Position numbers and translations under genes: made by a program. Below the pieces are notes generated by a model, which had not been told where the DNA came from, did no database searches, and saw nothing but the letters and a program-made list of their open reading frames with translations. This document shows positions 13,465-59,745 of a stretch of DNA of 64,000 bases, in pieces. Position 1 is the first letter of the stretch. Every line of letters begins with the position of its first letter. This DNA is from Octopus vulgaris (Eukaryota), in NCBI GenBank assembly GCA_951406725.2, contig OX597827.1:79422001-79486000 (forward strand), written 5' to 3'.

Positions 13465-13580
13465 TTGCTCTTTTGTTGAAGTTAGTGTATGTGACAAGAC
13501 TGCTACATCTCTGTACTGTTCTTTGTAACTGCTGCAGCAAGAATGTGAAAATATTGATGGACTAGAGGTGTGAGTCAGAT
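13465..13580 (-). promoter_or_regulatory. Putative non-coding leader exon / core promoter of gene A
   Basis: Donor GCAA|GTAAGT at 13464; TGTGAGTCAG at 13569-13578, at similar spacing to the four other leader modules. 5' end inferred. Confidence 0.55.
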
Positions 13581-16500
13581 AGGGAGAGACAGCAGCTAAC
13601 ATTTTTCTCTTCATTTGTGCTATTGCATGAACTCTAGGTACAGGAAAAATTACTTGAGTACAAAATAGTTAGCTTGCTGTACAATATATGAAATACATAA
13701 AGCCTTTTACAAACATGTTTTCTCATGTATTTTCCCTATCAAAAATAGATTTAAAAGTAATTTTAATAAAAACATGTATGAAATATCAATTTTATTCGAA
13801 TATGTTTTCACTTATTATTTCAAAAATTAGTTAACAACTTAAAAGTAACATTTTTGTTATTCACATAGCATTGTTAAATGCATATGTAATGTTAAATTTG
13901 ACAAATTTACTGACATATTATTTTTTTTAATGTTTTTGTTCATATTTACTTCAGTTAATATTACAACTATCAGTACATGCCATCATGGTAAATGATGATT
14001 ATTACGCTTGATTAAGAGTGACCTCATAACTAAAGATTGCAAATACAGTTATGTGTATATTAATAAAAGCCTTTGATTTATAGAGATGCGAAAATGCACA
14101 TTGCCACATTTATTTATTTCCCAGGCATACCATTGCATCACAACAAATCTTTATGAGAGTGTAATGAAACACTAAGATAAAATGAAAGAAAGAAACCACT
14201 GTAACACAGTTGTTATCTTAAGATCCTTTATTTAAGTGAAAATGCTATCATGTGGAACATTCTCTGAGAAACTACCAAAAAACAAAAAAAGTTTTTGACA
14301 CTTTATAGTTTAGACAACATACTCTACTCGAAGTATAACTTGTAAGAATTTTTACATATGTAGCATCATCCACTGATTACATTTATACAGTTGAGAAAGC
14401 ATAAACGTGTCAGTTTCCTTTGTTTAAATGCATAATGTCAGCTATCAAAATACAGACATTTTGGATTCTGTCAAGGCCTCTGGATACTGAGTTTCATGGA
14501 AGAGATAGACAAAGAACTAGGCTGAGTGGTAACATGCAGTGCTGGAGAAGACTCATCTCTCTGTGCAAAACCCAATAGGTCCTCATTAAACCTGCATATG
14601 TTACTTCCTCTTTGATATCTTCTCATTTCTCTGTCACTCATTTCTCCATTATTCTCCTCTCTTTACTCACTTTCTCCCTCTCTCTTACATTTACTGTTGT
14701 ATTCCATCTGAGTAGCTAAGGATGACAGTGTCTCATACATCCTACTATCACCCTTTCTATACTGCCAGTTATTACTACCAGTCATCGCTCTCTTGTTCCT
14801 TAAGCCACTTGCTATTGGCATCCATAACTCACCCTTACTATTGTCAACATCCAACTCTAATACTTTCTATTACTTTCTCTTCCCTTCTACCATCCTTTCA
14901 TGCAATCACTCTGTTTCTGCCATCATACTCTTGCAACATTAACTGCACCTTCCTAGTTCTTCTGTCATTGCTCTTTCTATTTTCTTAAACACGTTAACTT
15001 GAGTGAATGACCACTTTATAAAATAATGAAGACTCTTTAGTCTTAAGGGATAAAAGACAATCTCACTTGCCATGATAAAATACATCCAGTATGTGCTGTA
15101 AATTTATGAGCAAGTTGTGGTTCTCTAACCCAACTAAGATGGGAGTAACATTCAATATGAACTCACTCAGACCATGATGACCTGTTTAATCTATACCAAC
15201 GTGGAGAGTGGATGTAAAATGTCAACGGTGATATTTTAATCCTTTAACTGTGAAATTAAATTTCATGGTTATTCCAGTAATAATGTTAAATATCTACCAG
15301 AAAATAGAATTGGTATTTTCTTTAAGCTAAGTTGCCTCAATAAACTTGATATATTTCAATAAAATATCGTTTCAAAAATTACATTCTTCAACAAAAGATA
15401 GATTGGGATATAAAACTGCTCTATGGCAGCTTAATTATAATGGTTCACAAAGGGTAAATATTTTTCTCAATTTTTTAATATAGGTTTAAGACAGAAGAAA
15501 CATTTATCATTTTTATTAGAAGTTAAGTAAAACAAGATTTGTTATAAAACATGGAGTTTTTTTTTTGTGTGTGTTACAGGAACATCCCTTCAACATTTTA
15601 AGGCATAGAAACAATTTTCTACTTTCCTGCCTTCATGTATATTTAAACACTAAAAAGTCTCTATATGACTTTTTAATCAATTTTTCTAATGAGAATTCAA
15701 TATATTTCTTATCAAGTTTAGACCTTTAAGTAGATATTTTTAAGTTGAATAATGTACTTAAAAGAACTATTTGAATAATTTTATTCCATTTCCAGATGCA
15801 GGTATCTCAACAAATTCTTTTTCCTTTCCATATATTTTCTCATGTTTTTGTCTCCCCTCCACCCTGGATTTCACCCTGTTAATAGAAATGACTTTTTTCC
15901 TAATGACACATGGTATTGGCATTCATGTTTTAGATTATGTTTCTTTGGAATTTTATAAAATAATATTTTCTGGAAAATTTTTTAAAAATGTTAATCTTTC
16001 AGTTCTATTTATATATTTATTTTTAATGATGTTTTAGGTTAATCTAATTCTTTGTTTGATAGTTTTTTTTCTTTAGATGATGAGTCAGTAGAAATTAGAG
16101 TAGAATTTTTGATAATTTGTAGAAGTACTGTTTTCTTTTTGTGGAATATTGTTGGAAAAATAATTAAGATGCAAATATCTAATTTCCTCTGTTTTGAATG
16201 TAAATATAATAATGGGAAATATTGGATATGATTACATGTGAAACATGTGTATGAGTATGTTATACTCATTTGATAATTTTTAAGTTATAGTATATCCATC
16301 AGTTCTGATATAATTTTCATCAATACTTTTGGTAACAGAGTGCTAATGAACTAGGAATGATACAATCCCTTAAAATATTTTATACAACTTTTTGGATAGA
16401 TTATATCACAGTATTATTGCATACTGTTTAATTTTCACAATGATGATTATTTGTCAATACAACATTCCACATTCTTTTATTAAAGGACAAAGGATTTGTC

Positions 16501-17016
16501 ATTCTAATATCTTCTTTTTCCTCTACCTCATTCTCTGTGTCTCTTCTCTTTGCCCTACTTTTGCAGTCATTGTTCTCTCCTATGCCTTTCATGAATAGTA
16601 GGATCCCTTCCCCAAATTTCTGTCTGCTTTATGATAGGTTCTATCTAAGGCTATACTTTGCATTGTGATGATTGCTTGTATTTAAGGCTATAGTTGCTTT
16701 TTGGCTGCAGACTGCTGTTATTGCAGCTGCTGAAACAGTCTGTACATGCTGGTTGTTTCCCATTAAGGATTATAGATTTTCATTTTTTTCTTGACTTAGC
16801 ACTACTTGTCAAAGTATATTATTTAGGTTTAACATTGTGTGGCTTATTAGTAATCTACTCAATTGCTGCAATGATTAGCATAGTTTACTTCAAGTATATT
16901 CAGGAAAAAAATCTGTTTTTACACTGAAAACTTTAGCTTCAATTAGGGAAGACTTGGATAGGAATTAGCAAGATTTATTTGCCAGGAATGTGGTTATAAA
17001 TTAATCTAAACTACTA

Positions 17017-18113
<1,097 letters not shown>

Positions 18114-18129
18114 ATAGTAATAATAATAG

Positions 18130-19020
18130 TGATAAGAAGAATATATGGTGAAGAAAGTATGTTGTCAATGGCTAGAAATGTCCAAAAGGTTTTTGAAAGA
18201 GTAGGAGAATTCAAGAAAAGAAGGAAGAACAGCAGAACAAATAGCCGGAAAGAGAAGAAATTACGCAGCCAATTCATGCAACAAACTGAGAATATTGGAA
18301 GTAAAGAACATTGGATGTAGCTGATGGACGAAAACCTAAAATGAGAAACAGAAGTCAATAAGATGAATTTGATAAAAGCAAAGTTTGATGAAACTCAGAG
18401 AGTAAATACAGAATCTGTGGGAAAGGAGATGAAAGTATTAATCTCCTAAGTGAATGCAATAAGCTGGCATGAAAAGAATATATGCACAGGTATGACTGTG
18501 TGCGTAAAAGAGTGCATTAGGATGTTAACTGAGTGTGTGGATACAAAATGTAGAAAAGTTGTATGAAAACAAGTCAGAAGCTGAGAGAGAGATTAAGGAT
18601 TACAGGATTTTAAAGACAGACCATACTGTTGAAGCAAAAAAAAAAAACAGATATGATTATTGAGGACAAAAGAAGCAAGCAGTGTAAGATCATAGACTTT
18701 GCAATAGCTTGTTATAATGGATTAGATACCAAAGAAAGTGAAAAAAACTGAGAAATAATTGGATTGAGCCTGAGAGATGAAAAGACTGTGGAAGACTAAG
18801 ATGGCAATTATTCATGTGGCAATTGGTGCACTTTGCATAACACCCAAAATACTGCCACCTAAGAGTCTGAAAGAGATTGGAATTGAGACTTGCATTGCTG
18901 ACCTGCAGAAAAGTGCCCTATTGTATTCTGCAAGAATCTTAAGAAGAAAGATTCTTGAGATTTGAGGAGACTTGTTGCCACTTAACCTGAAGACAACATC
19001 CCTGCTCACTAATGTAGAAT
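18130..19020 (+). mobile_element. 3' relic of an R4/Dong-like non-LTR retrotransposon (restriction-like endonuclease)
   Basis: Fragments ECNKLA*KEY..RYD (CCHC region), DMIIEDKR..CKIIDFAI (PD..D nuclease), EMKRLWK..IIHVAIGAL..TPK, LQKSALLYSARILR. Disabled. Confidence 0.65.
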
Positions 19021-20113
19021 GTAAAAGTTTAAATATTAGGTTTTTATCTTATTAGTTGTCTCTTGAGAAAAATAAAAGTTATTTCAAATTACATTTTGAA
19101 ATATAGTTGTCATTGTTTAGCTCCAGATCAGTCACCATTATAAAAGGCCTATGATCAATTTATCTTTTATTTGAACATACTTTATTTTCATGTGTCCTTC
19201 CTCTTTTAAGATGGTACTATATGATCTGGGCGGAAATGTTTTGTTATTTCTAACAAATTGAGAAACCATATATAGGTTTTGTTGTTGGTTTCTCTAATAT
19301 AAATTAAATTAAAATTAAATTAAATTAAAAAAATTGAATTAAAAAAATTTTAGAGTTTTATATATTTGTATTGTGATTTGTTGCTTGTAGATATCTTTGT
19401 GTTGTTGAATGTGTGTTTAATGTAGTAGATTAATGAAACTGACAGCTTCTATTTTAGTAACTGAATCTTGTGGAAGTCTTTTGGATTTGCAATTATAAGT
19501 CAATTATTATTTTAAATTCATAGCTGGCTGGCAAGTAAAATGCCAGAATAAATAATTTTATAGTATTTAACTATGTTACTCTGCATTCTGAAATTAAATC
19601 ACATTGGAATGTAAAGATCTATAATATTCTCCACAAAAACTGACCTTGAGTCTTAGAATGGAGTCATTATTGTTACTACATTCGTAATCATGACAGATTA
19701 AATGCCTTAGAATTTACCTTTGTTCCTATCTCCTGCTGGAAGTTGACTTTGCTATTAAAACTTCTGTGTTGTTTAAATTAATACCAGTTGTGTAATGAGA
19801 TTGATTCAGTCAATTATATTCCTCATCAAAATTTATGACCTTGCTTATGTCTGTTAAGGTGTTGAAATATTCTAAGTTGTTTGATCCCATCTAATCCATC
19901 TGGTTCCTCATTAAGTTTTGTGAAGTGGGCTGAAATCTCTCTGACAGAAATTTTGTTCATGGAATTTCTTATTTCTCTGAGCCATCAACTATCAAACAAA
20001 GTGACTGTGTTAGTCTGTTGAAATGTTCCTGCATTAAGAGTAAGTGGAGAAATACATGCAGCAAAGTGGATGTTACATTTCAGACTGAAGCTCAAGATAG
20101 TTGATTTTATGAA

Positions 20114-21358
20114 TGTGGGCAGAAAATTCTTAAGCTAAGAAGGAGTGAAGCTAGAGCTGCAGTCATGCATGCATTAATTTCAACTTCTCTTATTAATAAC
20201 TGCATTGTTTCTTTCCATGTAAACTGACATCTAACTGTTCAAAGAAGACTTCATAAGAAACTTGAGACAGCTTCTCTTGAAAATGGACAAAATTTAGTAT
20301 CATGGTGTTATTGAGTATCTGCAGATAAAAAAGGGTTTAGCACCCATGAACATGCACGCTGACATGATTGCTACATTAGGGGCTGACACTCCAGCTTTAT
20401 CAACAATGCAAAAGTGGATAGGTAAATTTAAGAGGGAAATGGAGATACTTAAAGATGATCCAAGATCTGTACAGCAACTGCCACCACTGAAGAAAACGTT
20501 GATTGTGTTCACCATATGGAGATGGATGACAGGCAATTGACTATAAATCAAATAGCCAATGCTGTTCGCATATTCTGTAAAAGAGTTGAGAATATTCTGC
20601 TCAATGAACTTGACATGATGAAGTTTTCTGTTCAGTGGGTACCATGTCTTCTGATATCTGATCAAAAGCACATCAGGCGATCACATCACAGGAAAATCTG
20701 ACATTGCTTGAGGTAGTTCCAGCTGGTTTCCTTGAACATTTTCTAACCCAGGATAAGTATTGGGTTCATCACTTTGAGTCAAAGACAAAGAGATAATCCA
20801 TGCAGTAGAAACACCCCTCCTCACCTGCTTCGAAGAAGGTCAAGGTGACAACCTCACCCTTTTAGGATGCAAGAGGCATTGTGTTTATTGAGTAACTTCA
20901 AAAGGGCCACACCATCAATGGAGAGTAATATGTCAACTTACTGAGGCAGTTACAAAAGGCTATCAAGACCAAATGTCCAGGAAAACTGATAAAAGGGGTC
21001 TTATTTCATCAGAATAATGATCCAGCACACAAGTGCGACTGTGGCTTTGAAGTGGTTGATCCTCCTCCTTATTCTCCTGATTTTGCTCCATTTGACTACT
21101 ATCTGTTTTCCAACGTGAAAAAAGAATAAAAAAACGCTTGGCTAGGAAGCAGTATCACAGTGATGCTGATGTCATATCCATTGTTGATGACCTTTTTTGA
21201 TCAACTGGATGAAAAATTTTTCACCGATGGGATCCTAGCACTGCAACACTGACTGAAGAACTGTATGGTCTGCAAAGGGTCTATGTTCAAAATAAACCTT
21301 ACTTGGTCATATTCTATGACAGTATCATCGCCAGCCTTTGAAATTTTCTGCTGACACT
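20114..21358 (+). mobile_element. Near full-length decayed mariner transposon
   Basis: HTH region (..KWIGKFKR..DDPRS), WVPCLL, DKYWVHHF, LFHQNNDPAH, PPYSPDFAPFDYYLF. Imperfect TIRs (gcagaaaatt at ~20118; aattttctgc at ~21342). Stops and frameshifts. Confidence 0.85.
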
Positions 21359-21361
21359 TGT

Positions 21362-31913: not shown

Positions 31914-32035
31914 CTGCATTGCCCAATCCATTGTTGTTACAGTATGTAACTAGACAGATATCCTGGTACAGTATTCCTGTGTAGCAGTGATGTTGCAATA
32001 GCAATATATTGATGAACTGGAATTGTGAATCAGGC
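31914..32035 (-). promoter_or_regulatory. Orphan protocadherin-type leader exon / promoter module
   Basis: Donor CAATGCAG|GTAAGT; TGTGAATCAG at 32024-32033. Aligns by eye along its length with the leader at 59613-59741 (aatccat..agtatgtaa..atgaactg..ttgtgartcag). Confidence 0.65.
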
Positions 32036-33257: not shown

Positions 33258-33337
33258 CTATACAGGCTCTAGATAGGTTTCTTGTTCTTGATCATGTTTT
33301 GGTGTAGGAGGTATGTTTGGTCGATAGTTACTGTATT
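33258..33337 (-). CDS. Protocadherin gene B terminal exon E3
   Basis: tttttttcag|AA TAC...GTA TAG; 80 nt; (E)YSNYRPNIPPTPKHDQEQETYLEPV*. Four clear paralogs in the window. Confidence 0.88.
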
Positions 33338-33610
33338 CTGAAAAAAATATAAAAACATAGTTTACTGTATTGTTTTCCATGAGATATGTATATTTTTAAA
33401 ACTGTTTACTAAATTTATAAGATTCTTTGTTTCTTAGAAATAAAATCTAACATTAACTATTTTAAAATGCTAAAAGCTATTTTGAATTATTTTTTGTTTT
33501 ACTAAATAATAAAATTTTATTTCATTCATACATTAACATTGAAAATATTATCTTGATATGCTTTTTTGACTGTTTTCAATTAGAATGTTCTGATATTACT
33601 ATATAATTAC

Positions 33611-33770
33611 CTGATGCTCCAGATTTCTGAGATGTAATGTCACCTTCACTCCACCCACGGTTCCGTTCTTTAAGAGAGGGTAGTGTATCATTTAGATTGT
33701 TTGATGTCACAATGCTGGCATTAAAACATTTTTGTTCAGTTGAACTCTCTTCCACATCCTTATTGTAATG
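33611..33770 (-). CDS. Protocadherin gene B cytoplasmic exon E2
   Basis: ctgacag|CAT...TCA G|GTAATT; 160 nt; HYNKDVEESSTEQKCFNASIVTSNNLNDTLPSLKERNRGWSEGDITSQKSGAS. Confidence 0.88.
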
Positions 33771-35904
33771 CTGTCAGATAATAATAATCATGAAAGTTAC
33801 TTGGAACAAGTTATATGAAGTTTTTACATTACAACTTGATACATAAAGTATATTTGTATACCCTATCTCCAATGCAACTGTAAGGAACATGGAAAGATAG
33901 AAGATACGGAATACAATGCCTTTATCATCATCATTTGACATTAATTTTTCTATGCTTACATGAGTTAGATGTTTCATCTCCAGTATATCTTAACACTTGC
34001 TATGGTCCATCATAATCTCCTTTGAAAGGTCTTCTTCTTCAGCAGAATTCTTCCCCTTGGATCCCTTAGTTTTGTTCCCCTAATTGTCTTCCTTCTTATA
34101 TCTCATGTATCTATACCATTATAGTTTTCCCTCCTACATACTACAGCTGATTCTTTTTATGCTCCTTTTTCTATTAACTTATCTATTCTCTCATTTACAC
34201 TCATAGCACATTCAAAAAGGTATGTTCACCACATTTCTTTCCAGCCTTCACATCTCCTACCCATATTTCATAACAATGCAATTCCACACTTCATACCCAA
34301 GCATCATAGAAACTGCCCTTCATTCATTTAGGAAGACTTTTGTTGCCAAGGTAATTGCTGCCTTTCCTTTGGTTCCCATATTTTCACAACACTCACCTCC
34401 TCTGTTGGTTAGATCACCAACATAACAGAAATTATCAATACTTCTAGCTGGTTCTGGGCATTTGAAAGAATTAATTTCATGAGAATCCTTGCTGCTATGG
34501 TTTTATTTAATACTGTACTCTGTAAAGTGGTAGGAGTTAGGAAAGGAATCCTGTCATAGAAATCATACCAAATCAGACTGGAATCTGATGCAGCTCTCCA
34601 GCTTGCCAGCCCTGGTCAAACCGTCCAACCCATGCCAATACGGACAACAGACATTAAATGATGATGTACCATCAGCATCTGTATAAAGAATTTCAACAAA
34701 GTATGCAAAATGACATCAAAATAATTGGTCAGTGATAAGAAATAGCTATACACATGTAATTTTTTTGATTGACTGTATAGAGGTAAAAGCAATGTACATT
34801 AATGGGGGAAGGTAACTATTGTAAAAGTTGGCAAAAGATGACGGAAAAATTCACAACTAATATCATTGGATCTCACATATTTGATGATACAAAATTAAGA
34901 CATAATAAAGTATTGTAAGAAAGAGAAAATATAATTTCATTCTTTAAAAGTAAGTAGCGTGACATTTACCTAAACGTGAAAAAAGTGATAACCTATCTTA
35001 TGATGAGCTAGAGTGAACCAGTGAATGGAATAAATATAATCCAGGTCTATCTGTGTATGTGTGTTTTGGGTATTTTTGTAATAATCGTGTGTATGATATG
35101 TTTATGATACATAACACTGCTTAACAAAATTTTAATTTTTTTTCAGAAAGTGTTCAAAGGAAGTGACTATTATTTCCTTCAAAATTTGCTTTTGTGACCT
35201 GGACATCAATGTTTTGAAACTGACCTATTTTCTATTACATTTCAGATAGATTCAGCACTGAGTTACTGAAGTAGAAATATCCTTATAGCAAATATTCTGC
35301 TCAATACTACACATTTGCTTGTCAGTTGCTTGATTTTAACCACTTGGGTATGTCCATTAGTGGCTGACAATATATGCATCTCTGATCATGAGCAGGAGTA
35401 GTGGGGGAGTATCATAGACGTGTGTTAAGAGGGATTCTTTGGGGTTTGAATAAATGCAACAAAAGCAAAATTTGAAGGAAATATTAGCCATTTTTCATTC
35501 TTTCTAGGGGTAAACAAATAAGAAATAACAATTGTCACCCAAGGACAAAAATCGTATTTCACAGTGTAATTAACTATTAGTTGTTGATAAATAAAGAATA
35601 TTTTCAATTTAAAATGAAAGCAAAATCTCTGAGTAATTTTTGATTATAATTTGCATGAAGCATGTCTGAGGTAAACATGAGATAGTATTGGGGGTTGTTT
35701 AACCTAGCCTGAGGATTGTAATCTCTTGTGAATAGAGGAAATGAAGAATTTGTTTTAGAAATGAATGTTATGTGTCATTGGTACTGTGAATGAGAATAGT
35801 CAGTTTCTAAATAACTATGAGCTATTTACTTATATTTAGATACGAGGTAAAAATATACAAACTATTGTTAATAACAATGAAAACAGCTAGTAGTGAAATA
35901 AGAA

Positions 35905-37443: not shown

Positions 37444-39840
37444 CTGTGGAACTGGTGGCAATCGCCTAGGTGTCGTTGAGAATTTCCATTCATTGGCCAC
37501 CTGTTCCATTTCTGGGTAATACGGGCTTTTAGGTTTAATTGACTGAAGATTTCGGCTAAATATCTCTTCTGCATTTCTGGTTATTGCAACTGGATTGTTA
37601 GTCTGATACAGTATTTGTCTCATCTCAGTCTGAGAGAGAAATTTTGGGTTGTGTGCTGTTTCAGGGGCACTATTGATGTGATTAATACATCTGAAAACAC
37701 ACAGTGTTATTGACACTACAATAGCCACAGATAGTATTACAGCTGCTGCTACAATGATAATTATCCAAGTCATATTCAGGTTGTTACCAGCCTGTGAGTG
37801 GACAACAGTCAACATTGGAGATGTATCATTACTAACAAACAGTGTTAGTATGATAGCAGTTGTTGCTGATTGAACTGGAGTACCACCGTCTTTCACTATA
37901 AACTGCAGCTCATATGTTCCTGCATCATTTTGGTAAACTGTGCGAGAGAAAGATAACACAGCAGTGTGTGAGTTCACTGTAAACAGGTTTTTATCATTGG
38001 ATTTCAGTATTCCATATGTGAGGAAAGCATTGTTTCCAGTGTCTTTGTCAGATGCTTTCAGAATTGTGATGTCCTTCTTACTGTGTGGATGGTAGTGGAC
38101 ATCGAGATTGTAAGGGTCATTATTAGGAAATATAAAATATGGAGCATTGTCATTTTTATCTAGAATTTCTATAAGAATATTGGCAGTGTTATTCAGTGAT
38201 GGTGTCCCATTATCTTTGACTAAAACATGTAAATTATAGATGTCTTTTACTTCCCGATCTATTGGTTGTGATGTAGAAATGAATCCATATTTTGTCAGTT
38301 GGAAAGGAATGTTATCATTGTTGTTATCATTGATGATAGAATATGTAAGTTGGCCTCCATCTCCAAGATCAGGGTCTGTAGCATTGATGAAGCCAATAGG
38401 GAAGTCAACTTTCTGGTTTTCATAGGTGAGGAATTGGAATGTCTCTTTGGTAAAATGTGGCTCTACATCATTGACATCAGTTACTTTGACAGAGAACTGT
38501 TTCTTAGTCTTTAGTGGAGGTGATCCCATGTCATGACATACAATCGACACAACATAATGGTCTATAGTTTCTCTGTCAAGAGGTTCTTTCACCAATATTT
38601 TATATTCTTTAGAACCCATATTAGAAAGCTGGAACATTTTATGGTGAATATTACATTTAATTTGTCCATTAGGTCCACTATCAGTGTCAATGACCATAAC
38701 ATAAGCTATAAAACTCCCAATTTTACTTGCTTCTGAAATAGCAGCAGAATTCACTGTTAAAGGTGATACAAAATCTATATTTATTGCTGGAGCATTATTT
38801 TGATTACTTATTACATTGATTATTAGAGTGGCTTTAGAACTTAAAGATGGTTTTCCTCTATCCTTGGCTTGAATATATAATTTATATTTTTGCTGTTTAT
38901 TTCTGTAAAAATCCTCATTTAGGAATATCTCTCCATCTGGTTTCAGTTTGAAATGGGTTTTGAGATAAGAGCTTGTTTTTTGATAAAAGTTATATGTGAT
39001 ATTACCATTTTGACCTGAATCTAAGTCTGTGGCTGATAAAACAAAAACAGGAGAAGATGTATGATGTGTATCACTGATTGTGATGTTGTACATCTGCTGA
39101 GAAAACATAGGTCTATTATCATTGACATCAATAACAGATATTTCTATGTTCAGAGTATCTTCTTTGCGAGGAGAACCACTATCCTTTGCAACTAACTGTA
39201 ACATATAAGTGTCTTTTAATTCTCTGTCTAACTTACCTTCTAGTGCTATTTTAAGTATTTTCATTCCATCAAACTCTTCGAATATTGATAATATAAATGT
39301 ATTACTTTTATCTTTCAGTTCATATGTGATGTTAGAATTGAAAATACCAATGTCTTTATCCACAGCATTTGGTATTGATTTTGTCGAACCTTTTGCTTCT
39401 GTTTCATAAAATTCTAATTTAATTTGATCTTCTGGAAACTCTGGTTGGTTATCATTAATATCATCAATTATTATCTTTATCTTTAATATTCTTATGAATG
39501 TTTCTTCTTTCCTAACAGCTACCTTGACAATTTTAAAACATTCTTTTTTGTAAATGCATAGAGATTCAGCATCAAGTGTGTGTGTAGTGTATAGTTTCCC
39601 AGAGTTAGTGACATTGAATAAGTGAGATCCCATTGACATTGTTCTTTGTAACTGTGTAAATGTAATGGGAGTTCCCTGATGATGTTTGAGAGATTGAGAA
39701 AAGTTAGAATCAGCAGCAATGTCTCCTATGTAAGTGTGAGGACTATCTTCTTCGTTGACATGGTAAGTGATATCTACACTTAGGACACTGTGTAGTAAAG
39801 TATGTAGTAGACAGATGAATAAGCCACTCTCTTTTGTCAT
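37444..39840 (-). CDS. Protocadherin gene B, large exon (signal peptide, EC1-EC6, TM, proximal tail)
   Basis: 799 open codons with six cadherin repeats and a TM helix; donor CCA CAG|GTAAGA. Joined to 33611-33770 and 33258-33337 it gives a predicted 878-aa protein. Confidence 0.95.
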
Positions 39841-42195
39841 TGTGATTCTTCACAAATCCTGCAGACTCTCAGTATCTTGAAAAACAAATGGAAATTCTAT
39901 TATTAGATTAAAACGGTCAACTTGAATGATCACTTCACATTTATTATATCTACCCACAATATTTGTAGTATCAAATCAATATTTGGGAATTTGTGTAGCC
40001 CCTCTTTTTGCAAAAATAATATTGCAAACTATTTTGGAAATTTATATCATGAAGTGGTGAATGAAACTAAAATTTAATAAAATTTATTATTTTTTAATTC
40101 GAAATAATGAAATACTGATGAATTAATGCAAAATTAGCACCAACCGAGTTGTGAGTATGACACTATTGAATGACCAAAATATTAACATAGCTTATGTAAT
40201 TCAGAAATAAAGTATAATTAATGTTGTGTTAACTTACTTGCGGCTTACATTGTTATTTGATTGGAATTTTATCACCAAAAGTTATCTCTTACTCAACTGA
40301 AGGATACCTAAAGCACATAATAAATAAATTACATCTCTTGAAATTCATATTGCTTTAAACTACATATAGATTCCTTTTAAAATAATCTAAGTGAATTTGA
40401 TGAAGTCACCAACCTCAACATAATGATGAGAATTTATGTTCGAATTAATTTGAAGTCAAGACAAAATCCATAGGCAAGACGAAATATGCTTACATTAGAA
40501 TTCAAATTTTATGAGTCTATATAAAATATTGTGTATGAAGTAGATGGAAGAGGGTGTATTATCATTAAGGCTACATCCTATTGTGGTTCTTTACAAAAGC
40601 ATCTGTGAGACACAGTCTCCATTCTTACTGAGTTATCACATTTATACTCTCTTCATATAAGTATTTTGCATATAAGTATATTTTCTTTTTGCTTAAACTT
40701 AAACATGTATTCACCATTCTATCTTCAAATAACAAACACAAAATTCAATTCAGTTATTCATCATCATCATCATCATTTAATGTCCACCTTCCATGCTGGC
40801 ATGGGTGGGACGGTTTGACAGGAGCCAGCCAGGCATAAGCCTGTACCAGACTTCTGTGACTGTTTTGGCAGGACTTTTACAGCTGGATGCCCTTCCTAAC
40901 CCCAACCACCCAGTTGTGTGGACTTAATGTTTTTTATGTGGCACAAGCGAGGTCAAAATTTTTACAGCTGGATGCCCTTCTAAATACCAACCACTTTACA
41001 GTGTGGACTGGATGCTTTCTAAGTGGCACCTGCACTAACAGGGTACTGAGTAGCCTGCAAGACAAAAATCTTTTGAGAGGAGAGCAGTTTTTGGAGGAGG
41101 TGATCTTGTGCCAGATGATGAAAGGTTATAGTGAGACAGAAACAAGTTTCTTGCTGTAGAGGAGGTACATGGTTACCCGGCTGGGGTGGGGGGGAGAAAG
41201 AAAGACAGAGAGAGATCAGGAATGAGGACAGAAACAGGTGTGCTGCTGCAAAGGAAATACATGGTTACCCAAAGGAGATACATGGTTGCCCAACCTGAGG
41301 GAAGTGCAGGAGGAAAAAGAGAGAGAGAATGGGAGACATCAGGATAGAGATAGTGGCAAACTGCAAGGCATACTCACAAGGACAAGGATCAAGATAAAAA
41401 TGAGATAGTCAAGTAAAGGCAGAGAGAGATATAAATGATGGTACGTGCAAAGGCATACCTTTGAGGTTTGAAGGTCATAATATAAGTGGCAGGATATTAC
41501 CTAAGAAACATGATTAGAGAGTACAGACAGAAAGTGAGTGGTGAAAACCTGGGTATAGAGTGGGAGGGAGGAGCTACTGGATAGCAATGATACAGAAAAA
41601 ATAGGGCCATAAGGACAGAATTGGGGAGTGAGAAGTAGGCATAGTGCATGAAGGAGGAAATGTGAGGAAAAGAAGAGATGTAGAGAGTTAGATTGGTTTG
41701 TTGCGGTAGGCTGTGTGAAAAGTTTTCTTCTGTGTAAGAGGAACACACAGATTGGGGGCTATTGGATATCAATAATACAGAGAAACAGGGACATGAGGAC
41801 AGGATTGGGGTGTGGGAGGTAAGCATAATGCATGAAGTGGAAATGCAAGGAAGAGAAGAGATGTAGTTTGGTTTGTTGTGGTAGGGTGCGTAAGAAGTTT
41901 TCTTGTTATGTGTGGGTGGAACAACTAGCGCTTATAGCACTCAGTTTCACTGACATGGGCAGGTCTTCTCAAGAAACTCATATTGTCTAGCAAAAGTATT
42001 TTCTGATGTTCAGATATTGAAAAATCTATACAGCTTGTTATTTAGTAAATTAACTTCGTGCTATGTATCTCTTTAATTGAAATGAATATTTATGAGAATA
42101 CATTATATCAGTTATTTATTTTACGATTAATTTAGAATCAAAATTATCAAACTCTTGTTGAAATTCTGCAATGGCTTTTATTATTTTATCATTTA

Positions 42196-44625: not shown

Positions 44626-44775
44626 CTACATTGGTTAATCCTTTTCCCATTTTAGATTCTGAGAGAGAGATACATTTTGGCGTAGCCTGCTTTTGCTGCT
44701 ATAGTAGTAGTATTTAAATAGCTGCTTGTTGATGTAGTAGTTTGACAATAGCTGTGTGCTGGTGTGAATCAGGGA
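44626..44775 (-). promoter_or_regulatory. Putative leader exon / promoter of gene B
   Basis: Donor CCAATGTAG|GTATGT; TGTGAATCAG at 44763-44772; donor-proximal cattggttaatcc matches the paralogous cattgtttaatc. Confidence 0.6.
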
Positions 44776-45256: not shown

Positions 45257-45336
45257 CTACATAGACTCAGAATAGATTTCTTGTTCTTGTTCATTCTTTG
45301 GTGTCAGAGGTATGTTAGGCTGGTAGTTGCTATATT
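45257..45336 (-). pseudogene. E3 exon of a headless protocadherin unit (frame intact)
   Basis: ttattttccag|AA TAT...ATG TAG; 80 nt; (E)YSNYQPNIPLTPKNEQEQEIYSESM*. No large exon belongs to this unit; functional status uncertain. Confidence 0.75.
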
Positions 45337-45469
45337 CTGGAAAATAAGGGGAAGCTACTTAATGATGTTTTAATTTGTTTCCATGACAAATATTTGAATA
45401 TATCTAGGTTATGTTTCTTCATGGAAATTTTTATTTGCTGTTTGAATTTTTTGTTTATTTCATTATTAC

Positions 45470-45626
45470 CTGATGCTCCCATTGCTTGATTTGTAATGTC
45501 TCCTTTATTCCAGACATAGTTCCATTCTTTGTTCCAGGGTAATGTCTCACTAAGGTTGTTTGATGTTTCAATACTACCATAACATTTTTGATCAGTAGGA
45601 CTCATTGCCATGTTCTTATCTTAATG
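45470..45626 (-). pseudogene. E2 exon of a headless protocadherin unit (stop at codon 2, in-frame ATG at 45611)
   Basis: tttttacag|CAT TAA GAT AAG AAC ATG GCA ATG...GGA GCA TCA G|GTAATA; 157 nt; H*DKNMAMSPTDQKCYGSIETSNNLSETLPWNKEWNYVWNKGDITNQAMGAS. Confidence 0.75.
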
Positions 45627-49069: not shown

Positions 49070-49207
49070 CTTCATTGTTTAATCTTTTGTTGTTGTTCTA
49101 AATGAAGAAAAACATGTATCTCATAGGTGTCTTCTTCTGTATCTGCTGCTGCTGTTCACAAATTGCAGTCATATTTCAAAAAATAGTTCCATTGAAATGT
49201 GAATTCA
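49070..49207 (-). promoter_or_regulatory. Leader exon / promoter module of the headless unit
   Basis: Donor CAATGAAG|GTAAGT; ttaccttcattgtttaatc is identical to 59609-59627; shares acatgtatctc; degenerate motif TGTGAATTCA at 49198-49207. Confidence 0.62.
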
Positions 49208-50348
49208 TAAATGTATTTAAAAGGTTTTTTAAAATGTATTTAATATGTGAATGTATGTGTGGTAATGTGTATTTGGGATTGCTTTTAATATTTCGTTTGT
49301 AATAAGGCTAAATACATTTGATGCGTTAACATTTCTACCAACAAAACCTATACAATAATAAATAAATGCAATGATATTTAGATAAAATACTATATTTGAA
49401 AGATAATTTTAATGTTAAGAAGAAGAATGGTGTAGATTCATTTTCCTCTACTTTACCAATATCTTTGCAAAAGGCATATCTACTCATCTACGTTTATATA
49501 AAGAGTGCCTTCTATAATTCTCATGTAAAAAATTATTATGTCCATAGTTTCAAAATTATTGAGCTTGATTCTATGATTTTTTGACATTTTATTTTAGTGC
49601 CATGTTTAGGCATTATCTTCTTAGTGTGAAATCTCAGTTTTAATTACAGGGGTGGTGTAGAGTTTGAAAATGTGGAAATTCAGCTGTCAGAGGGAAGAAT
49701 ATATGTGTGTGTGTATGTGTGTACAGAAAGTCATGTTTTGCTCCTGACAGGAAAAATGCCATCAAAAGAAAATATATATTCTTTTCTACTCTAGGCACAA
49801 GGCCCAAAAATTTTGGGAGGGGCCACTCGATTTGATCGATCCAGTATGCAACTGGTACTTAAGTTATCAACCCTGGAAGGATGAAAGGTAAAGTCAACCT
49901 CGGTGGAATTTGAACTCAGAACCTAAAGACTGCATACTATTTCAGTAGTTGAAGCTCTAGAAGAGTTAAGTACCTTGTCTTAGGATACTTGTATTCCAGT
50001 TTCAAGAAAAGAGTTGCTGCAGATTTGGACTCTTAACTATATACAGCCATTTATTTTTATTTATCAAAATATAGCTTTGCTGAAATCTATTAGTATTATC
50101 AATGTATAATATAAATTCTAATACTGGAAATATCTACATAATTAAAAAGTAGTGAAAACCTCACCAAAATTAGCATCAGCCCTATGACCTTCATTAGAAA
50201 ATTATAACTTAAGTATTTGTTAAAGAGTTTTCAATAAAAGATAAATTGAAAACAGTGCTATATGGAATGTTATTAATACACTATTGAATTATTTAAGGGG
50301 TTGATTCTTTGGTTACTAAAAAGTAAATCTGACGTTACTGTGTTTGCA

Positions 50349-50428
50349 TTATACTGGCTCCAGATACGTTTCTTGCTCTTGTACAGTCTTTGGGGTAGGG
50401 AGTATGTTTGGTCGGTAGTTGCCGTATT
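50349..50428 (-). CDS. Protocadherin gene C terminal exon E3
   Basis: ttttttcag|AA TAC...GTA TAA; (E)YGNYRPNILPTPKTVQEQETYLEPV*. Confidence 0.88.
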
Positions 50429-50770: not shown

Positions 50771-50930
50771 CTGATGCTCCAGATGTTTGATGTGTAATAT
50801 CTCCATCACTCCAACCACATTTCCGTTCTTTATGAGAAGATAATGTATCATTCAGATTGTTTGATGTCATAATACCACTGCTATAACATTTTTGTTCAGT
50901 TGAAGTCATTGTTTCATCCTCATTGCAATG
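50771..50930 (-). CDS. Protocadherin gene C cytoplasmic exon E2
   Basis: tttttcatggtag|CAT...TCA G|GTAAAT; 160 nt; HCNEDETMTSTEQKCYSSGIMTSNNLNDTLSSHKERKCGWSDGDITHQTSGAS. Confidence 0.88.
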
Positions 50931-51888: not shown

Positions 51889-51926
<38 letters not shown>

Positions 51927-53025
51927 ATGTAAGTATGTATGTATGTATCTTAGTCATGGAATTGGAATGTCCATGATATTTTAGAGGTTTCTAAAATTGG
52001 TGAGAAGGAGGAAGATATTTTTAAAAGGTAGACCTGGCTTCAGTGCTCATCACGCTGTAGACTTCACTGAGCACACAAGTATTCAGCAATGGTGTTAAAC
52101 CAGGCAGCAGTTTTAGTCTACCACTCAGGTAGACCATAGCAAAATTTGGACTTAGAATGCAAGACACTGGAATAAATACCACAGGTCATTTTGTTCAGTA
52201 TTCTAATGGCTCTGTCAATGCGTCACCAGTAACTTTTCATCTTGGTGGTTGATTCTTTTCAACAATAATGATGAATCATTTGGATGCATTAAGGGTTTGT
52301 TTTCATAAAACATTTTGTAACTAATGTATTGTAATCTGTTATATTATTAGATGTACTTTATTAATAATCATGAATGTAGGTTCTTTACTATATAGCTCTC
52401 AGAATACTTAAATATTTCATCACTGGATTCAGGCTTTGAAACATTAAAACTATTTCAGGCTTTAGCTTTATAATTATTAGTTAAAAGCAAGGAATGAAAA
52501 ATATCCCAATATATTTCTTTTAAAATTAATTTGTTACTTTGATTTCAAATTTTGGCAAAAGGCCAGTAATTTCGGAGGAAAGGTAAGTTGATTACATCAA
52601 CCCCAGACTTTAACTGGTAATTATTTTATCGACCCCAAAATGATGAAAGGCAAAATTGACCTCAGTAGAATCTGAACTCAGAACATAAAGACAGACATAA
52701 TGCTGCTAAGCATTTTGCCTGGTATGTTAATGATTCTGCCTGCTCATCGCCTTATTACTTCATATTATATTAATAATCATTTCATTATTTCTCTACCAAT
52801 CTGCATGTGCACTGGAAGCCTTCCTTAAAAATTTAAGTGTTTAATCAATGTATTATTGGCACAAATTTTCTAGACCTTAATTGAATCCTTAAATTAAAAC
52901 TAATATAAGACTTTTAAAGTAATAGAGCCAAAATCAAGCTAAGATACTATTCTGTTTAATGGTAATGAATCAAAGATTCATTCTGAAATGTTTCCAATGA
53001 TGCACATTACATACTGAAGTATAAT

Positions 53026-53322
53026 CTCTGGAAGCACTCCGTCGGTTACGACGACGAGGGTTCCGGTTGATCTGAATCAACAGAACAGCCTGCTCGTGAA
53101 ATTAACGTGTAAGTGGCTGAGCACTCCACAGACACGTGTACCCTTAACATAGTTCTCAGGGATATTCAGCGTGACACAGAGAGTGACAAGGCCGGCCCTT
53201 TGAAATACAGGTACAACAGAAACAGGAAGTAAGAGTGAGAGAAAGTTGTGGTGAAAGAGTACAGCAGGGATCACCACCATCCCCTGCCGGAGCCTCGTGG
53301 AGCTTTTAGGTGTTTTCGCTCA
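53026..53322 (-). mobile_element. 5'-truncated SINE with 13-bp target-site duplication
   Basis: GC/CpG-rich insert flanked by exact actgaagtataat at 53013-53025 and 53323-53335. Its right end resembles the reverse complement of 8880-8960. Confidence 0.75.
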
Positions 53323-53829
53323 ACTGAAGTATAATAACACTATCATAGCTGTAAGAGTTCTGTCATTTTAAAATTATAAATACATACAGACATTGGAGCT
53401 AAAAGTATGAATTCTAATTACTGTTTTGTCTTTATAAGAGAGACTGAATTTTGCATATTATTATTATTTCGTTGGCATACTACCATGTACTTCAAAGTCA
53501 ACATTGGGATTACATATTTACTTTCTTAATGACAAGCAACACTATCGATTACCTCACTTTAAATTATTACATTCTCTGATAAGTAATTCATAATCCACAT
53601 CGTAACCTGGACACAGGATTGCTTGACTAGCTAGAAATAGCTAGAAACATCCTTCAATTCACATTACATTCTTTTAGAAACTGAACAATTTGGTCCTGAG
53701 AAAAAGATCTGACCACAGATTTTTATGTTCCCATCAGGGTTGACAAATGCTTAAACAACATCAAAAACACACTACTCCTCTTTGTAAATATAACTTCATA
53801 AAAAGTATTTTTTAAACAGTAATACATAC

Positions 53830-56238
53830 CATTGGGACTGGAGGTAATTTTCTGGGGGTAGTTGAGAATTTCCATTCATTAGCTGACTGCTTCATGTCTG
53901 AGTAATAAGAGCATTTGGGGTTTATTGATTGAAGATTTCTGTTAAATATGTCTTCTGCATTTCGAGTTATTGCAACAGGATTGTTAGTCTGATACAATAT
54001 TTGCCTCATTTCAGTCTGAGAGAGAAATTTTGGATTACCATTTGGTGTAGGGGAGTTATTGAAGTGGTTAATACATCTAAAAACACACATTGTTATTGAC
54101 ACTACAATAGCCACAGATAGTATTACAGCTGCTGCTACAATGATAATAATCCAAGTCATATTCAGGTTGTTACCAGACTGTGAGTGGACAGCAGTCAACA
54201 TTGGAGATGTATCGTTACTAACAAACAGTGTTAGTATGATAGCAGTTGTTGCTGATTGAACTGATGTACCACCATCTTTCACTATAAACTCCAGCTCATA
54301 TGATCCTGCATCATTTTGGTAAACTGTGCGAGAGAAAGATAACACACCAGTGTGTGAGTTCACTGTAAACAGGTTTTTATCATTGGATCTCAGTATTCCA
54401 TATGTGAGGAAAGCATTGTTTCCAGTGTCTTTGTCAGATGCTCTCAGAATTGTGATGTCCTTCTTACTGTGTGGATGGTAGTGGACATCGAGATTGTAAG
54501 GGTCATTATTAGGAAAGATAAAATATGGGGCATTGTCATTTTTATCCAGAATCTCTATAAGAATGTTAGCAGTGTTATTCAGAGAAGGTGTTCCATTGTC
54601 TTTGACTAATACCTGTAAATTATAGATGTCTTTCACTTCTCGATCTATTGGTTGTGATGTAGAAATAAATCCATATTTTGTCAGTTGGAAAGGAATGTTA
54701 TCATTGTTGTTATCATTGATGATAGAATATGTAAGTTGGCCTCCATCTCCAAGATCTGGGTCTGTAGCATTGATGAAGCCAATAGGGAAGTCAACTTTCT
54801 GGTTTTCATAGGTGAGGAATTGGAATGTCTCTTTGGTAAAATGTGGTTCTACATCATTGACATCAGTTACTTTGACAGAGAACTGTTTCTTAGTTTTTAA
54901 TGGAGGTGATCCCATGTCATGACATACAATAGATACAAAATAATGGTCTATAGTTTCTCTGTCAAGAGGTTCTTTCACCGATATTTTATATTCTTTAGAA
55001 CCCATATTGGAAAGCTGGAACATCTTATGATGAATATTACATTTTATTTGTCCATTACGTCCACTATCAGTGTCTGTAACCATAACATAAGCTATAAAAC
55101 TCCCAATTTTACTTGCTTCTGAAATTGCTGTAGAATTCTCTGTTAAAGGGGATACAAAATCTATATCTATAACTGGAGCATTATTTTGATTACTAATTAT
55201 ATTGATAATTAACATGGCAGTAGAACTTAAAGATGGTCTTCCTTTGTCTTTTGCTTCAATATATAATTTATATATTTGCTGCTTATTTCTGTAAAAATTA
55301 TTATTTAGGAACATCTCCCCATTTGGTTTCAGTTTGAAATTTGTTTTAATGTCAGACCTTGTTTTTTGGTGAAAGTTATACGTGATGTCACCATTTTGAC
55401 CAGAATCTAAATCTGTAGCTGATAAAACAAAAACAGGAGTGGTGATATGATGTGTATCACTGATAGAAATATTGTACGTTTTTTGAGAAAACATAGGTCT
55501 GTTATCATTGATATCTGTAACAGAGATTTCTATGTTCAGAATACCTTGTTTTGGTGGAGAGCCACTATCTTTTGCAAGTAACTGTAACATGTATTTGTCT
55601 TTTAATTCTCTGTCTAATTTTTCTTCAAGTATAATTTCCAATATATTCATTCCATCAAACTCATTAGATATAGATAATGAGAATTTCTTACTTTTGTCTT
55701 TGAGTCTATATGTGATCTTTGAATTAAGACGACCAATATCTTTATCCACAGCATTTGGTATTGATTTTGTTGATCCTTTTGCTTCCGTTTCACCAAACTC
55801 TATTTTAATTAGATCCTCTGGGAACTCTGGTTGATGATCATTAATATCTTGTATGATGACTTTTATCTTTAAAACCTTGATAAATGTTTCTGCCTTCCTC
55901 ACTGCAACTTTAACAATTTTAAAACATTCTTTGTTGTATGTACACAAAGACTCAGTATCCAATGTTTGTGTAGTGTATAGTTTCCCAGAGTTGGTGACAT
56001 TGAATAAGTGAGAACCACTAGCTGCTTTCCTTTGTAGTTGTGTAAATGTAATGAGAGTGTCCTGATGATGTGTAAGAGGATATGATAAGTTTGAGTCAAT
56101 AGCAATGTCTCCTATATAGGTTTGAGGAGTGCCTTCTTCATTGACATGGTAAATGATGTCTATTGAGACAATGAGAGACAGTACTTGGTATAAAATACAT
56201 ATCAGCAGACTTGTCCTTGTCATTTCTTTGTTTTTCAT
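53830..56238 (-). CDS. Protocadherin gene C, large exon (signal peptide, EC1-EC6, TM, proximal tail)
   Basis: 803 open codons (the second Met at 56223 is an alternative start); acceptor ttatttttag at 56261; donor CCA ATG|GTATGT. With E2/E3 the predicted protein is 882 aa. Confidence 0.95.
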
Positions 56239-59200
56239 TTATCTTCAAAATTAACAATACCTAAAAATAAGAAATAAATTACTTTAAAATAGCATAAAAT
56301 AAGCAATATCACTATCAAAAATATTAGTTTTTAAACTCATGTGTTTTAAAAATTGAAAGTATTTGTTGGTGTAGAAGAATCAGTTCAAATATATATTTTT
56401 CATTTGTTAATCACTGTATGCAGGAAATGAAATGAATTGTTTTGCCTATAAATGGCAACAGAGTGTATTTTCAATCAAATAATTATATAGTATAAATTAT
56501 AGCATAGAAGTCTTGTCATACGGACATACTTTTGAGTACTTACTACTAAATCACTAAACCTATATAAGACAAAAGGGGGACTTTGTGTATGAAGTGAGAT
56601 GAGAAAAAAATTCAATGGACATAGCAGTGAATATCTGGATTTGTTGTTATTCTTTAGCTCTAAGATGGCTTTGAACAAGCAAATCTATGATGAAGGCATT
56701 CAAGCCATGACCATCTATTCTTTTATTTAGGAATACTGTTCTCTAGATTACATTATCTACTGTAAGCTTTTAAGACTGTAGGATGTATTTTAGTGTAGAT
56801 TTGGCTGCTAGTTCTAGAATGGACAACCATGTAGTGATTCCCTCATTGGTTTTAAGAATTTCTAAGATGCAGAAATGGAAATGAGGGCGTTGCTGATTGT
56901 GACAGAGGTATCATAGAAACTGATGAAAAAATCCAAAGCAGTGAAGTTAAATTCTAGTGCAGCATTGAGATTATTGATGAAAAATGTAGGTGGGAAATGA
57001 TGGTGCTGGAGATGAAAATTGAGCAGTGATCAAAGATGTTTTGTAAGTTTGACAGGCCGTCATTGTGAGGATGAAAGTAATGGGATTTAACATCCATGCC
57101 AGTGCTGCCTGACTAGCACCTGTACCGATGGCATGTAAAAAGCCCCATTCAAACGTGGTCAATACCAGTGCCGCCTGACTGCCACCTGTGCCACTGACAT
57201 GTAAAAAGCACCATTCAAGTGTGGTTGATGCCAGTGCTGCCTGACTGGTTCCTGTGCTGTTGGCATGTAGAAAGCACCCTCTACACTCTTGGAGTTGTTG
57301 GTGTTAGGATGGGAATCCAGCTGTAGAAACCTTGCCAAATCAGATTGGAGCCTGGTGAAGACTCCTGGCTTGCCAGTCCCCAGTCAAACCATCCAACCCA
57401 AGCCAGCATGGAAAGCGAATGTTAAATTATGATGATGATGATGGTGAATGAAGAGAATTTCGAAAGAAGAATAGATGAAAAAAACTGATGGTGTGATTAG
57501 TGTTTGTGATGTTGGGGACAGATAGGAAACAAAAGCTGACAAGATTCTTTAGATGTTTTGAGAGAATTTAAATTAGAACAACTATATGTGGATATGATAA
57601 GGTGACTAAAATTGTTAGGTGTGTAAATTTGGAAGGGGAAATAGACAGTGGAGGTTTTGGAGTAAAATTAACAGCAGTGGGAGAAAGTAATGGGAAAGAT
57701 GATTAAATAACAATAGTAAAAATAATTTTGTATTGGGATAAGTAAGTTCTTTTGGTATTTTTCTAGCATGCATTGAAGAACTTGAGGTGTTCTTCTAGAA
57801 GTTTAAAAACTCCAAGTTGTAGTGGCTAAGAAAGGTGTCCATCTAGTAGCTGATGTTTTTGAAAGACAAGTTAAATATGAAATGGAGTGTTGCCCAGTTG
57901 CCATCATATGCAAGTCGTAATCACATCTTTTGTTCAAAATGGGCTGATATGATTGGAGTCCCTAATTTTAATAAGTACTGGAATGGATTCTTTGGTGCCT
58001 TCAGAAGAAGTTGAAATCAGCAATGCAAGCTATGAACCACTAATCTAGTTTACAGTACTACAAATGGTTAAAGTCACGAGTTGTTCTTGCTTTACAGTAC
58101 AAGAGTCTTTGTCATGGACACACTATGATGACTTTGATAGGATATAAACTGCATACATTTATATGTTGTATAAAGGTTGAGTGGATGTCTGTTTCTCTAT
58201 TGTTCCACATATCAGTATGTGAAAGCACATAGTCTTGTGATTTAGGTATTAATCTCATACTCATCTGGTCATAGGTTCAATTTTTGGACTGGGTTGCATG
58301 TTGTGTTCTTGAGCAAAGCACTTCATTTCACATTGCTCCTGTTCACTCAGCAGAAATGAGTGCCAGTGACAGCTGGAAGTTAACTCTGCAATGAACTACC
58401 ATCCACTACTCTCAATTACTTAAATACCCCAGAAGCCTGGATACACTCTAACCTAGTGAACCTGTTGGTTATCTTGTAGAATTGACTTTAATTTCTGAAA
58501 CTGCCATGTTTACATATCAAATAAAATAATGAAATATTTTGGTCATTTTATGCATGTGCAGTGTTATCAAAATGTTGCTTAAGGAAATGGATAGAATATA
58601 TAAATAAGTAAAAGTTTTTTCTCCAATTGTGCAAGTTATATTTGAATCATTCTTATGTCATTTTAAAAGTATTATAATATACGTAGCCATTTAGCTTACT
58701 TTCTGTAGGTTTCTAGTTGTACAGTTTACTTTCTTGTGACAAGAATGTATATGACTACATCGAAGTCAGAGCTCAACTTAGATAAGTCACAAATTTTTCC
58801 TGCAGTCATAATCTTCTCAAAATTAATGTAGACTTATGTATATGTCTTTTATTCATCTTAAACATATCAATATAAATTACAGTATCATATGTAATACGTG
58901 GATGCTGCTAAGTGAGACATTTTCTATTTGTATATTTTTACGACAGGCATGGTCTATAAACAAGTGATATAATTAACTGAAAAAATGAGGGTATTAATAG
59001 TTATTTAAATGATTGCATCAAAAAAGATTCTGTTCCAAAACTGTAGCCATGAAGTTATCATTATAAATAAATATTGTACCATATAACACTTTAGCTTGTT
59101 TTTCATAATGTGCATTTCTGAAAGTAGATTTAATAATTCTTTATTTTCATTTTCTATTTACTTATTTTGATAAAGACTGAGATATTTCATTGATTCCCTT

Positions 59201-59612
59201 AAATTTTCCCCTATTTATTTTAAGAATTATCCCAATTTATTATTATGTATATGCAGATATATACACATAGAATAATTAACACTTTTATTTAGTACAAATG
59301 TTACATTACTACAGATCAACCTTGTTTACTATTCCCTAATAATTAAATCCACCCAGTTTAACATCAAAATTATGTATAAATATATTAAAGTAATATAGAA
59401 AGCATAGATTCTATTAAATATATGCCTTTTTAGAAAAATTAATGGCTGTCATGTAATTATTCTAACTGCTATGGAAATATGTCTTCCTCTCAGTGCTATT
59501 GCCTGTAATGGTGGAAATGACTGCTAGATTTTTATATTCTTTTATCCAGATAGTCAATTGCTTTTCACCAAAACTGTCACAAAATAAGAAAAGACAAAAT
59601 AGTGAAATTTAC

Positions 59613-59745
59613 CTTCATTGTTTAATCCATCATTTCCATAGTATGTAAGTAGTGACATGTATCTCGATGTTGTGTTCCGGTGTAACTGCTACTGTAGTTG
59701 TGCACTTAGTTATATGTTAATGAACTGCAGTTGTGAGTCAGATGA
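59613..59745 (-). promoter_or_regulatory. Putative leader exon / promoter of gene C
   Basis: Donor CAATGAAG|GTAAAT; TGTGAGTCAG at 59732-59741; homologous to the modules at 49070, 44626, 31914 and 13465. Confidence 0.65.

Follow-up and report, generated by a model that had tools for sequence, protein, structure and literature searches.

A conserved non-coding module as a candidate promoter-proximal first exon in an octopus protocadherin array

The array, its units and the module

The stretch of DNA analysed here (the window) comprises 64,000 nucleotides (nt) of the Octopus vulgaris genome, C14:79,422,001-79,486,000. It belongs to a head-to-tail array of protocadherin (PCDH) genes in the 464 kb around it, which we also examined, and whose units are preceded by a conserved non-coding module that closes on a splice donor and carries a short motif at its upstream edge. 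Three long open reading frames (ORFs) lie on the minus strand of the window, at 53812-56238 (gene B), 37408-39849 (gene C) and 9298-11745 (gene D). All three contain PF08266 and five PF00028 stretches (gene D at 22.9 bits, just below the 23-bit cut-off) and have the hallmarks of octopus clustered protocadherins, namely six cadherin repeats of which the first is of the protocadherin type, a transmembrane segment and a single large exon. The ORF of gene B is a 100% match to an annotated 882-amino-acid O. vulgaris protocadherin, and the spliced model that RNA joints give for this gene is equal to it in length (882 amino acids). A unit consists of the module, a large exon 2 with the ATG, the ectodomain and the transmembrane segment, and two private small cytoplasmic exons; the start codon and the signal peptide sit in exon 2 and the module is therefore non-coding. 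We found no constant exons shared between units: each has its own small exons, and gene B joins its own in all four RNA runs used here. In the consulted part of PMC9068888, cephalopod protocadherins are likewise described as lacking shared exons and as head-to-tail full-gene duplicates in sub-arrays on chromosome 14; a promoter element, a non-coding first exon and a spacing rule, by contrast, are not described in that part.

A first-pass annotation of the window had placed the motif TGTGARTCAG upstream of five minus-strand donors. Exact copies are indeed present at 13569, 32024, 44763 and 59732, each reading CTGAYTCACA on the strand of the genes, and the fifth, at 49198, is degenerate as the annotation had said: it reads TGTGAATTCA, has AT-rich surroundings and is absent from the matches with one mismatch or fewer. 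The donors at 13464, 31913, 44625, 49069 and 59612 are separated from the motif's first T by 113, 119, 146, 138 and 128 nt, respectively, and in four units the motifs fall 0.49-1.72 kb and the donors 0.63-1.85 kb behind the previous stop codon, distances that agree with those first reported. Four exact motifs compare with 0.38 expected, and none of 100 shuffles reached four; the five copies are paralogues, so this statistic exaggerates their independence. A search of the window with one mismatch allowed returned 11 matches against 11.65 expected, which is chance level, and TGTGARTCAG occurs 9,103 times in the 2.8-Gb genome, or about 0.21 times per 64 kb.

The motif forms the 5' edge of a larger conserved element, a non-coding exon end of 110-150 nt that closes on the donor. 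A profile built from seven copies located 44 homologous donor-ending modules in the 464 kb, and 89 copies were found in all across the stretches examined. The part of the cluster that was sampled includes four further groups whose units are also preceded by modules and whose proteins are only 48-58% identical; nearly all units of five subfamilies have one, and several singleton genes gave no module match. The view that the motif stands before every unit thus applies to the module and fails for the exact 10-mer, of which there are only six for the 44 modules of the 464 kb. In the local subfamily, of which 13 copies were compared, identity from motif to donor was 0.72 against 0.62 for shuffled sequence, while the flank upstream (0.63, shuffled 0.61) and the intron (0.64, shuffled 0.61) were at shuffle level; the conserved unit is therefore the exon end starting at TGAC. 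The motif does persist amid diverged DNA, as had been claimed, in company with the whole stretch down to the donor.

Further blocks within the module are CATCAA, ATTGTCAC, CAG repeats, ACAAWGGAT and GTAAG. Counts of TGAC were binned from the donor, column counts anchored on the motif being circular, and one bin, 101-150 nt upstream of the donor, contains the word in 17 of 25 representatives (0-8 in each of 29 other bins); in 13 picks, one per lineage, the same bin held seven (0-5 in the others). ACAAWG or its reverse, presumably a SOX-like word, was counted 34 times in the last 130 nt before the donor and 3-10 times in nine other windows, counts that come from homologous copies in A/C-rich sequence and are not independent hits. 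An Rfam search gave no match.

Two other candidates within the module were set aside. ATTAAA before the donor, considered as a conserved poly(A) signal, is present in only 10 of 25 representatives. An upstream ATG, considered as the true start, was in frame with the main ORF in none of the junctions inspected, for some of which the scripted acceptor was a wrong guess, and it is missing in several copies. An ATG does stand immediately before the donor in most paralogues (in the window at 59613-59620, 44626-44632, 31914-31920 and 49070-49076), and after splicing it gives a start-stop or short or overlapping out-of-frame ORFs; in a subfamily of 25 genes the stop of a 15-codon upstream ORF overlaps the main ATG.

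Variation of the motif between subfamilies

TGAYTCAC is found in 30 of the 89 modules and is lost or altered in the other 59. It is kept in 15 of 16 modules of the local subfamily (79.435-79.611 Mb), and each of three other groups is uniform: TGACTCAC in 14/14 modules at 80.09-80.22 Mb, TGACGTGC in 17/17 at 80.40-80.57 Mb and TGACACAC in 10/10 at 81.35-81.46 Mb. Four singletons read TGACTCAC, TGACTTCT, TGACTTAC and TGATCCAC, and at 79.166-79.421 Mb all five copies inspected among 25 close ones read TGGCTAAC. TGAC stands at the homologous place in every subfamily except one large one. Judged from these sequences TGAC is the most stable part of the motif, since TGAYTCAC is replaced by TGACGTGC, TGACACAC or TGGCTAAC in other subfamilies.

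The first-pass annotation had offered an AP-1/basic leucine zipper (bZIP) site or an initiator-like TCA as the identity of the motif, and of the two the bZIP site fits better. The TCA is lost where TGAC is kept (17/17 TGACGTGC, 10/10 TGACACAC) and is also missing in the TGACTTAC and TGACTTCT copies, so an initiator TCA is not conserved. We take TGACTCA to be an AP-1 site and TGACGT to be a CRE-type (cyclic AMP response element) site. TGACTCA is present in 13 of the 16 local copies and in 14/14 of another subfamily, and TGACGTG in 17/17 of a third; two window copies differ in having TGATTCA, and other groups have TGACACA, TGACTTA, TGACTTC or TGGCTAA. A TGASTCA site or TGAC half-site is thus found in most local copies and in two other subfamilies and is missing from the 28 modules at 79.166-79.421 Mb.

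Two composite patterns were cluster-specific: of their 60 and 47 matches across the genome, 31 and 24 respectively lie within C14:79.4-80.4 Mb, and the remainder are fewer than the matches of the reversed-pattern controls (43 and 57). These two tight patterns, the only ones applied there, had no match at the dispersed protocadherins of C14:1-15 Mb. A looser pattern, TGAC..ATTGTCACAC, was uninformative genome-wide because its 708 matches were dominated by a repeat. A 2.26-kb copy (97-98% identical) of the module and intron 1 of the 80.09-80.22 Mb subfamily lies at C10:63,175,043-63,177,301, lacks an exon 2 within the 15 kb examined, and is either a transposed first exon or an assembly artefact. 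In the single spacer inspected for it, near C14:80,529,030, GACCAATCAG, which we take to be a CCAAT-box-like word, stands about 260 nt upstream of the TGACGTGC motif.

Donor use and the spacing of modules

Contigs from four runs of four studies were aligned to 43900-60400 of the window; that they represent RNA was a guess, which is backed by canonical splice joints. The donor at 59612 was joined to exon 2 in all four runs, as were both later introns of gene B. The donor at 49069 was joined in three of the four runs to an exon-3 copy at 45626-45470, which in the same three was joined onward to a paralogous exon 2. Of the donors predicted for five modules, two (59612 and 49069) are therefore seen in use and those at 13464, 31913 and 44625 stay predicted. 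Contig depth was not used to rank donors. Cover is sparse over the 44625 module, and none is listed for X1, X5 and X10 immediately inside the intron that follows donor 59612, but neither is evidence of absence.

The unit that follows the 49198 motif had been called headless. It does lack the large exon; since its donor is used, the unit is transcribed and RNA crosses the intact module at 44763. Splicing thus leads from the exon-3 copy of one unit past a terminal exon and a first exon to exon 2 of a unit downstream, which makes this a read-through chimeric RNA. The exon-2 partner is probably that of gene C, the next gene: the 521 letters that remain in the contig equal the distance to the acceptor at 39875, and the gap pattern and some 42 differences agree, although one listed base differs and one other paralogue has an acceptor at an equal distance. 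Read-through chimeric splicing between adjacent genes is a reviewed phenomenon (PMC13501980 and PMC9768141, in the parts consulted), and the splice seen here, from an internal exon of one unit to exon 2 of another farther downstream, resembles it; what differs is that the favouring layout, in which the donor of a first exon follows the previous stop by about 1.2 kb, recurs in all five subfamilies examined.

The distance from stop codon to donor was 634-1851 nt (median 1253) in 41 of 43 measured units, with a terminal-exon match about 1.3 kb upstream of the module in the 44th. The next exon 2, by comparison, follows the donor at 1576-29684 nt (median 3881). In three other subfamilies the stop-to-donor distance was 885-2302 nt (14/17), 903-1540 nt (12/14) and 1546-1755 nt (4/10 copies measured). 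The module keeps its place behind the terminal exon even after introns of 9 kb and 26 kb, or where no exon 2 follows. Lying about 1.2 kb behind the previous stop, it is likely to be entered by upstream transcription, which can use its donor. Three modules are isolated, the previous unit being 19.8 kb (module of donor 13464), 7.3 kb and about 40 kb away; they are followed by intact reading frames and keep TGAC, and the two outside the window lie at C14:80328470 and 79180815. At C14:79,420,680, 79,166,631 and 80,005,437-80,006,875 there are modules that trail a terminal exon and have no intact exon 2 close by, and also two adjacent modules 1.3 kb apart.

Table 1. Positions of protocadherin exons, modules and motifs in the window
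Feature	Position	Strand	Basis or remark
Gene A exon 3	63689..63849	-	predicted; exon 2 beyond window
Gene A terminal exon (stop 61463) and spacer	59742..61540	-	reached by contigs spliced at 59612
Motif CTGACTCACA	59732..59741	-	exact match
Module ending at donor 59612	59613..59740	-	spliced to exon 2 in 4/4 runs
Gene B large exon 2 (ATG 56238; full protein 882 amino acids)	53830..56260	-	RNA joints and protein match
Gene B exon 3	50771..50930	-	both joints in 4/4 runs
Gene B terminal exon (stop 50351) and 3' untranslated region	49208..50428	-	contigs 50428-49901 and 49799-49070; gap is a dispersed repeat
Module with degenerate motif (49198-49207)	49070..49207	-	donor 49069 used, 3/4 runs
Exon-3 copy with in-frame stop	45470..45626	-	spliced from donor 49069 and onward to protocadherin exon 2
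Degenerate terminal-exon copy, unit without exon 2	45259..45340	-	degenerate copy
Module ending at predicted donor 44625	44626..44771	-	acceptor outside stretch covered by contigs
Motif CTGATTCACA	44763..44772	-	exact match
Gene C large exon 2	37444..39875	-	acceptor 39875 predicted
Gene C exon 3	33604..33773	-	predicted
Gene C terminal coding exon and stop	33260..33341	-	predicted
Motif CTGATTCACA	32024..32033	-	exact match
Module ending at predicted donor 31913	31914..32032	-	no exon 2 for next 20 kb
Motif CTGACTCACA, isolated module 19.8 kb from previous stop	13569..13578	-	exact match
Module ending at predicted donor 13464	13465..13577	-	predicted, non-coding
Gene D large exon 2 (6 cadherin repeats, transmembrane segment)	9334..11777	-	ends predicted; small exons near 6396 and near 34

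Possible functions of the module

With moderate confidence, we read each module as a first exon close to the promoter of its gene and the motif at its 5' edge as a bZIP/AP-1-type site. We favour this reading because conservation starts sharply at TGAC, because TGACTCA is switched for TGACGTG between subfamilies and because isolated copies exist, which stand before intact genes and so fit a first exon able to function with no neighbour upstream. The motif would then be a candidate bZIP/AP-1-type site in each gene's own promoter, bound by a bZIP dimer as TGACTCA, or as TGACGTG in another subfamily, and transcription would start inside or just before the module. The downstream blocks (CATCAA, ATTGTCAC and ACAAWGGAT) may be further factor sites or elements of the 5' untranslated region (UTR). 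Transcription arriving from upstream would run over the promoter and yield joined RNAs, and the module would have spread by tandem duplication and be maintained by selection, its motif being free to vary from one subfamily to the next.

Several observations weigh against a promoter at this place. In the four runs no contig begins at the motif anywhere in 43900-60400; contigs merge overlapping RNAs and so cannot locate a transcription start. Those spliced at 59612 reach 59801 (X10), 60098 (X5) and beyond 60400 (X1, with 727 more letters beyond the stretch), that is 60, 357 and more than 650 nt upstream of the 59732 motif, and those spliced at 49069 reach 49799 (X1, X5), about 590 nt upstream of the motif, where they adjoin the contig of the last exon of gene B, which stops near 49900. 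The degenerate 49198 motif has a working donor beside it. No conserved position of TATA or CCAAT was found, and CpG are few; between stop and motif there was no conserved position of AATAAA either (52 against 45 expected, with none in 4 of 19 spacers). The region 79.166-79.421 Mb, where the largest recent expansion is found, has the motif in 0/28 modules; the motif identities were assigned by likeness to consensus sequences, and all the data are paralogues of one genome. The contigs that pass through the motif are compatible both with true read-through and with an overlap between a 3' UTR and the following first exon.

An alternative, which we consider improbable, is that chains of genes are transcribed from a few promoters, the module being the 3' end of the previous long last exon, its donor linking gene N to gene N+1 and its blocks being splicing or RNA elements. 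It draws support from the contigs, unbroken from spacer through donor in both spacers examined, and from the splicing of the exon-3 copy over an entire module to the exon 2 of a unit downstream. The short stop-to-donor distances, beside the long and variable ones from donor to exon 2, speak for it too, as does the way modules trail a terminal exon whatever the length of the intron or the fate of the next exon 2. Read-through PCDH transcripts are also mentioned in the consulted part of PMC9712504, where they fused gene models in a long-read-based annotation and were treated as a matter for correction. An overlap between a 3' UTR and a first exon would, however, yield identical contigs, and unequal crossing-over within exon 2 would equally be expected to link a module to its upstream exon. 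The three isolated modules stand before intact genes, such RNAs seldom have their downstream ORFs translated and in Arabidopsis are targets of nonsense-mediated decay (PMC9768141, in part), and single PCDH genes have distinct cell-type patterns, with about 19 PCDH per cell and some genes cell-type-specific, according to the part of PMC9712504 consulted.

Slightly less probable still is the idea that the first exon is real and the motif an inert inheritance from recent duplication and gene conversion. Its loss or alteration in most modules, the abundance of the 10-mer in the genome and the non-independence of the copies are what this idea would lead one to expect, but the 8-mer was kept in 15 of 16 local copies despite flanks and introns at shuffle level, and TGACTCAC turns up again in subfamilies whose proteins are 54-55% identical. 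It is very unlikely that the motif is a branch point (CTGAC, CTGAT or CTAAC) with a following AG, which would make the module an internal exon joined to a donor farther upstream: all variants match the TnAy branch consensus, including CTAAC in the subfamily without TGAC, and an AG lies 10-32 nt downstream in most copies, but the position of this AG is variable (the first is about 47 nt away in some copies), there is no T-rich tract, in contrast to the true acceptors of these genes, and contigs pass the motif unspliced, with no joint at these AGs among the 15 listed of 83 joints, a sample in which rare use could be missed.

A further proposal, which we regard as doubtful, concerns the sub-arrays as a whole: they may act as a relay in which each promoter and first-exon donor is built into the 3' end of the upstream neighbour. 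Equally doubtful is its corollary, that an active gene would silence or capture the next by read-through and that subfamily-specific bZIP sites (AP-1 and CRE-type) would set the starts of chains. Such a relay, if real, would be a CTCF-free way to choose protocadherin combinations.

The nearest known counterpart is the conserved sequence element (CSE) of vertebrate clustered protocadherins, a shared promoter element with a CGCT box that is bound by CTCF just before the coding exon (PMC7811963, in the part consulted). The likeness lies in a common element that occupies a constant position ahead of each gene in a tandem protocadherin array. The octopus element differs in preceding a separate non-coding exon, 1.6-30 kb from the coding exon, in varying by subfamily, in the lack of shared constant exons and in that TGAYTCAC, present in only 30 of 89 modules, does not stand before nearly all members. 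A consensus CTCF core, with up to two mismatches, occurs near 3 of 27 representatives at unrelated positions, against a background of 0.32 per kb, and CGCT in 5 of 27, again at unrelated positions, with no conserved CGCT box found. Since no CTCF-like site is conserved, the modules are not homologous to the vertebrate element, a lack of homology that had been proposed at the outset. The accompanying suggestion that the motif may govern isoform choice does not apply in the vertebrate sense, because the cytoplasmic exons are private to each unit.

The module bears on how cephalopods choose among 150-290 independently duplicated protocadherins. A literature search, with subscription papers outside its reach, turned up no account of the promoters of cephalopod protocadherins, nor of the module itself. 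The module provides exact repeated targets with natural controls, in the form of AP-1-type, CRE-type and site-less subfamilies, isolated copies and a degenerate copy whose donor is used. The short spacing between stop and donor would mean, in addition, that read-through can confound 3'-end single-cell counts and gene models in such arrays.

Some minor features of the locus complete the picture. The module that ends at 31913 may be an orphan or an alternative 5' exon of gene D. The 18 kb between it and the next module (13600-31900) hold no protocadherin exons and many repeats and reverse-transcriptase fragments. Several exon-2 copies at C14:79.20-79.40 and 79.53-79.62 Mb are split by frameshifts or truncated and are pseudogenes or assembly errors. 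Within the window, at 54300-54950, the 3' half of exon 2 is near-identical among paralogues, many of whose contigs also match there, and the 5' repeats have diverged, a pattern expected of gene conversion.

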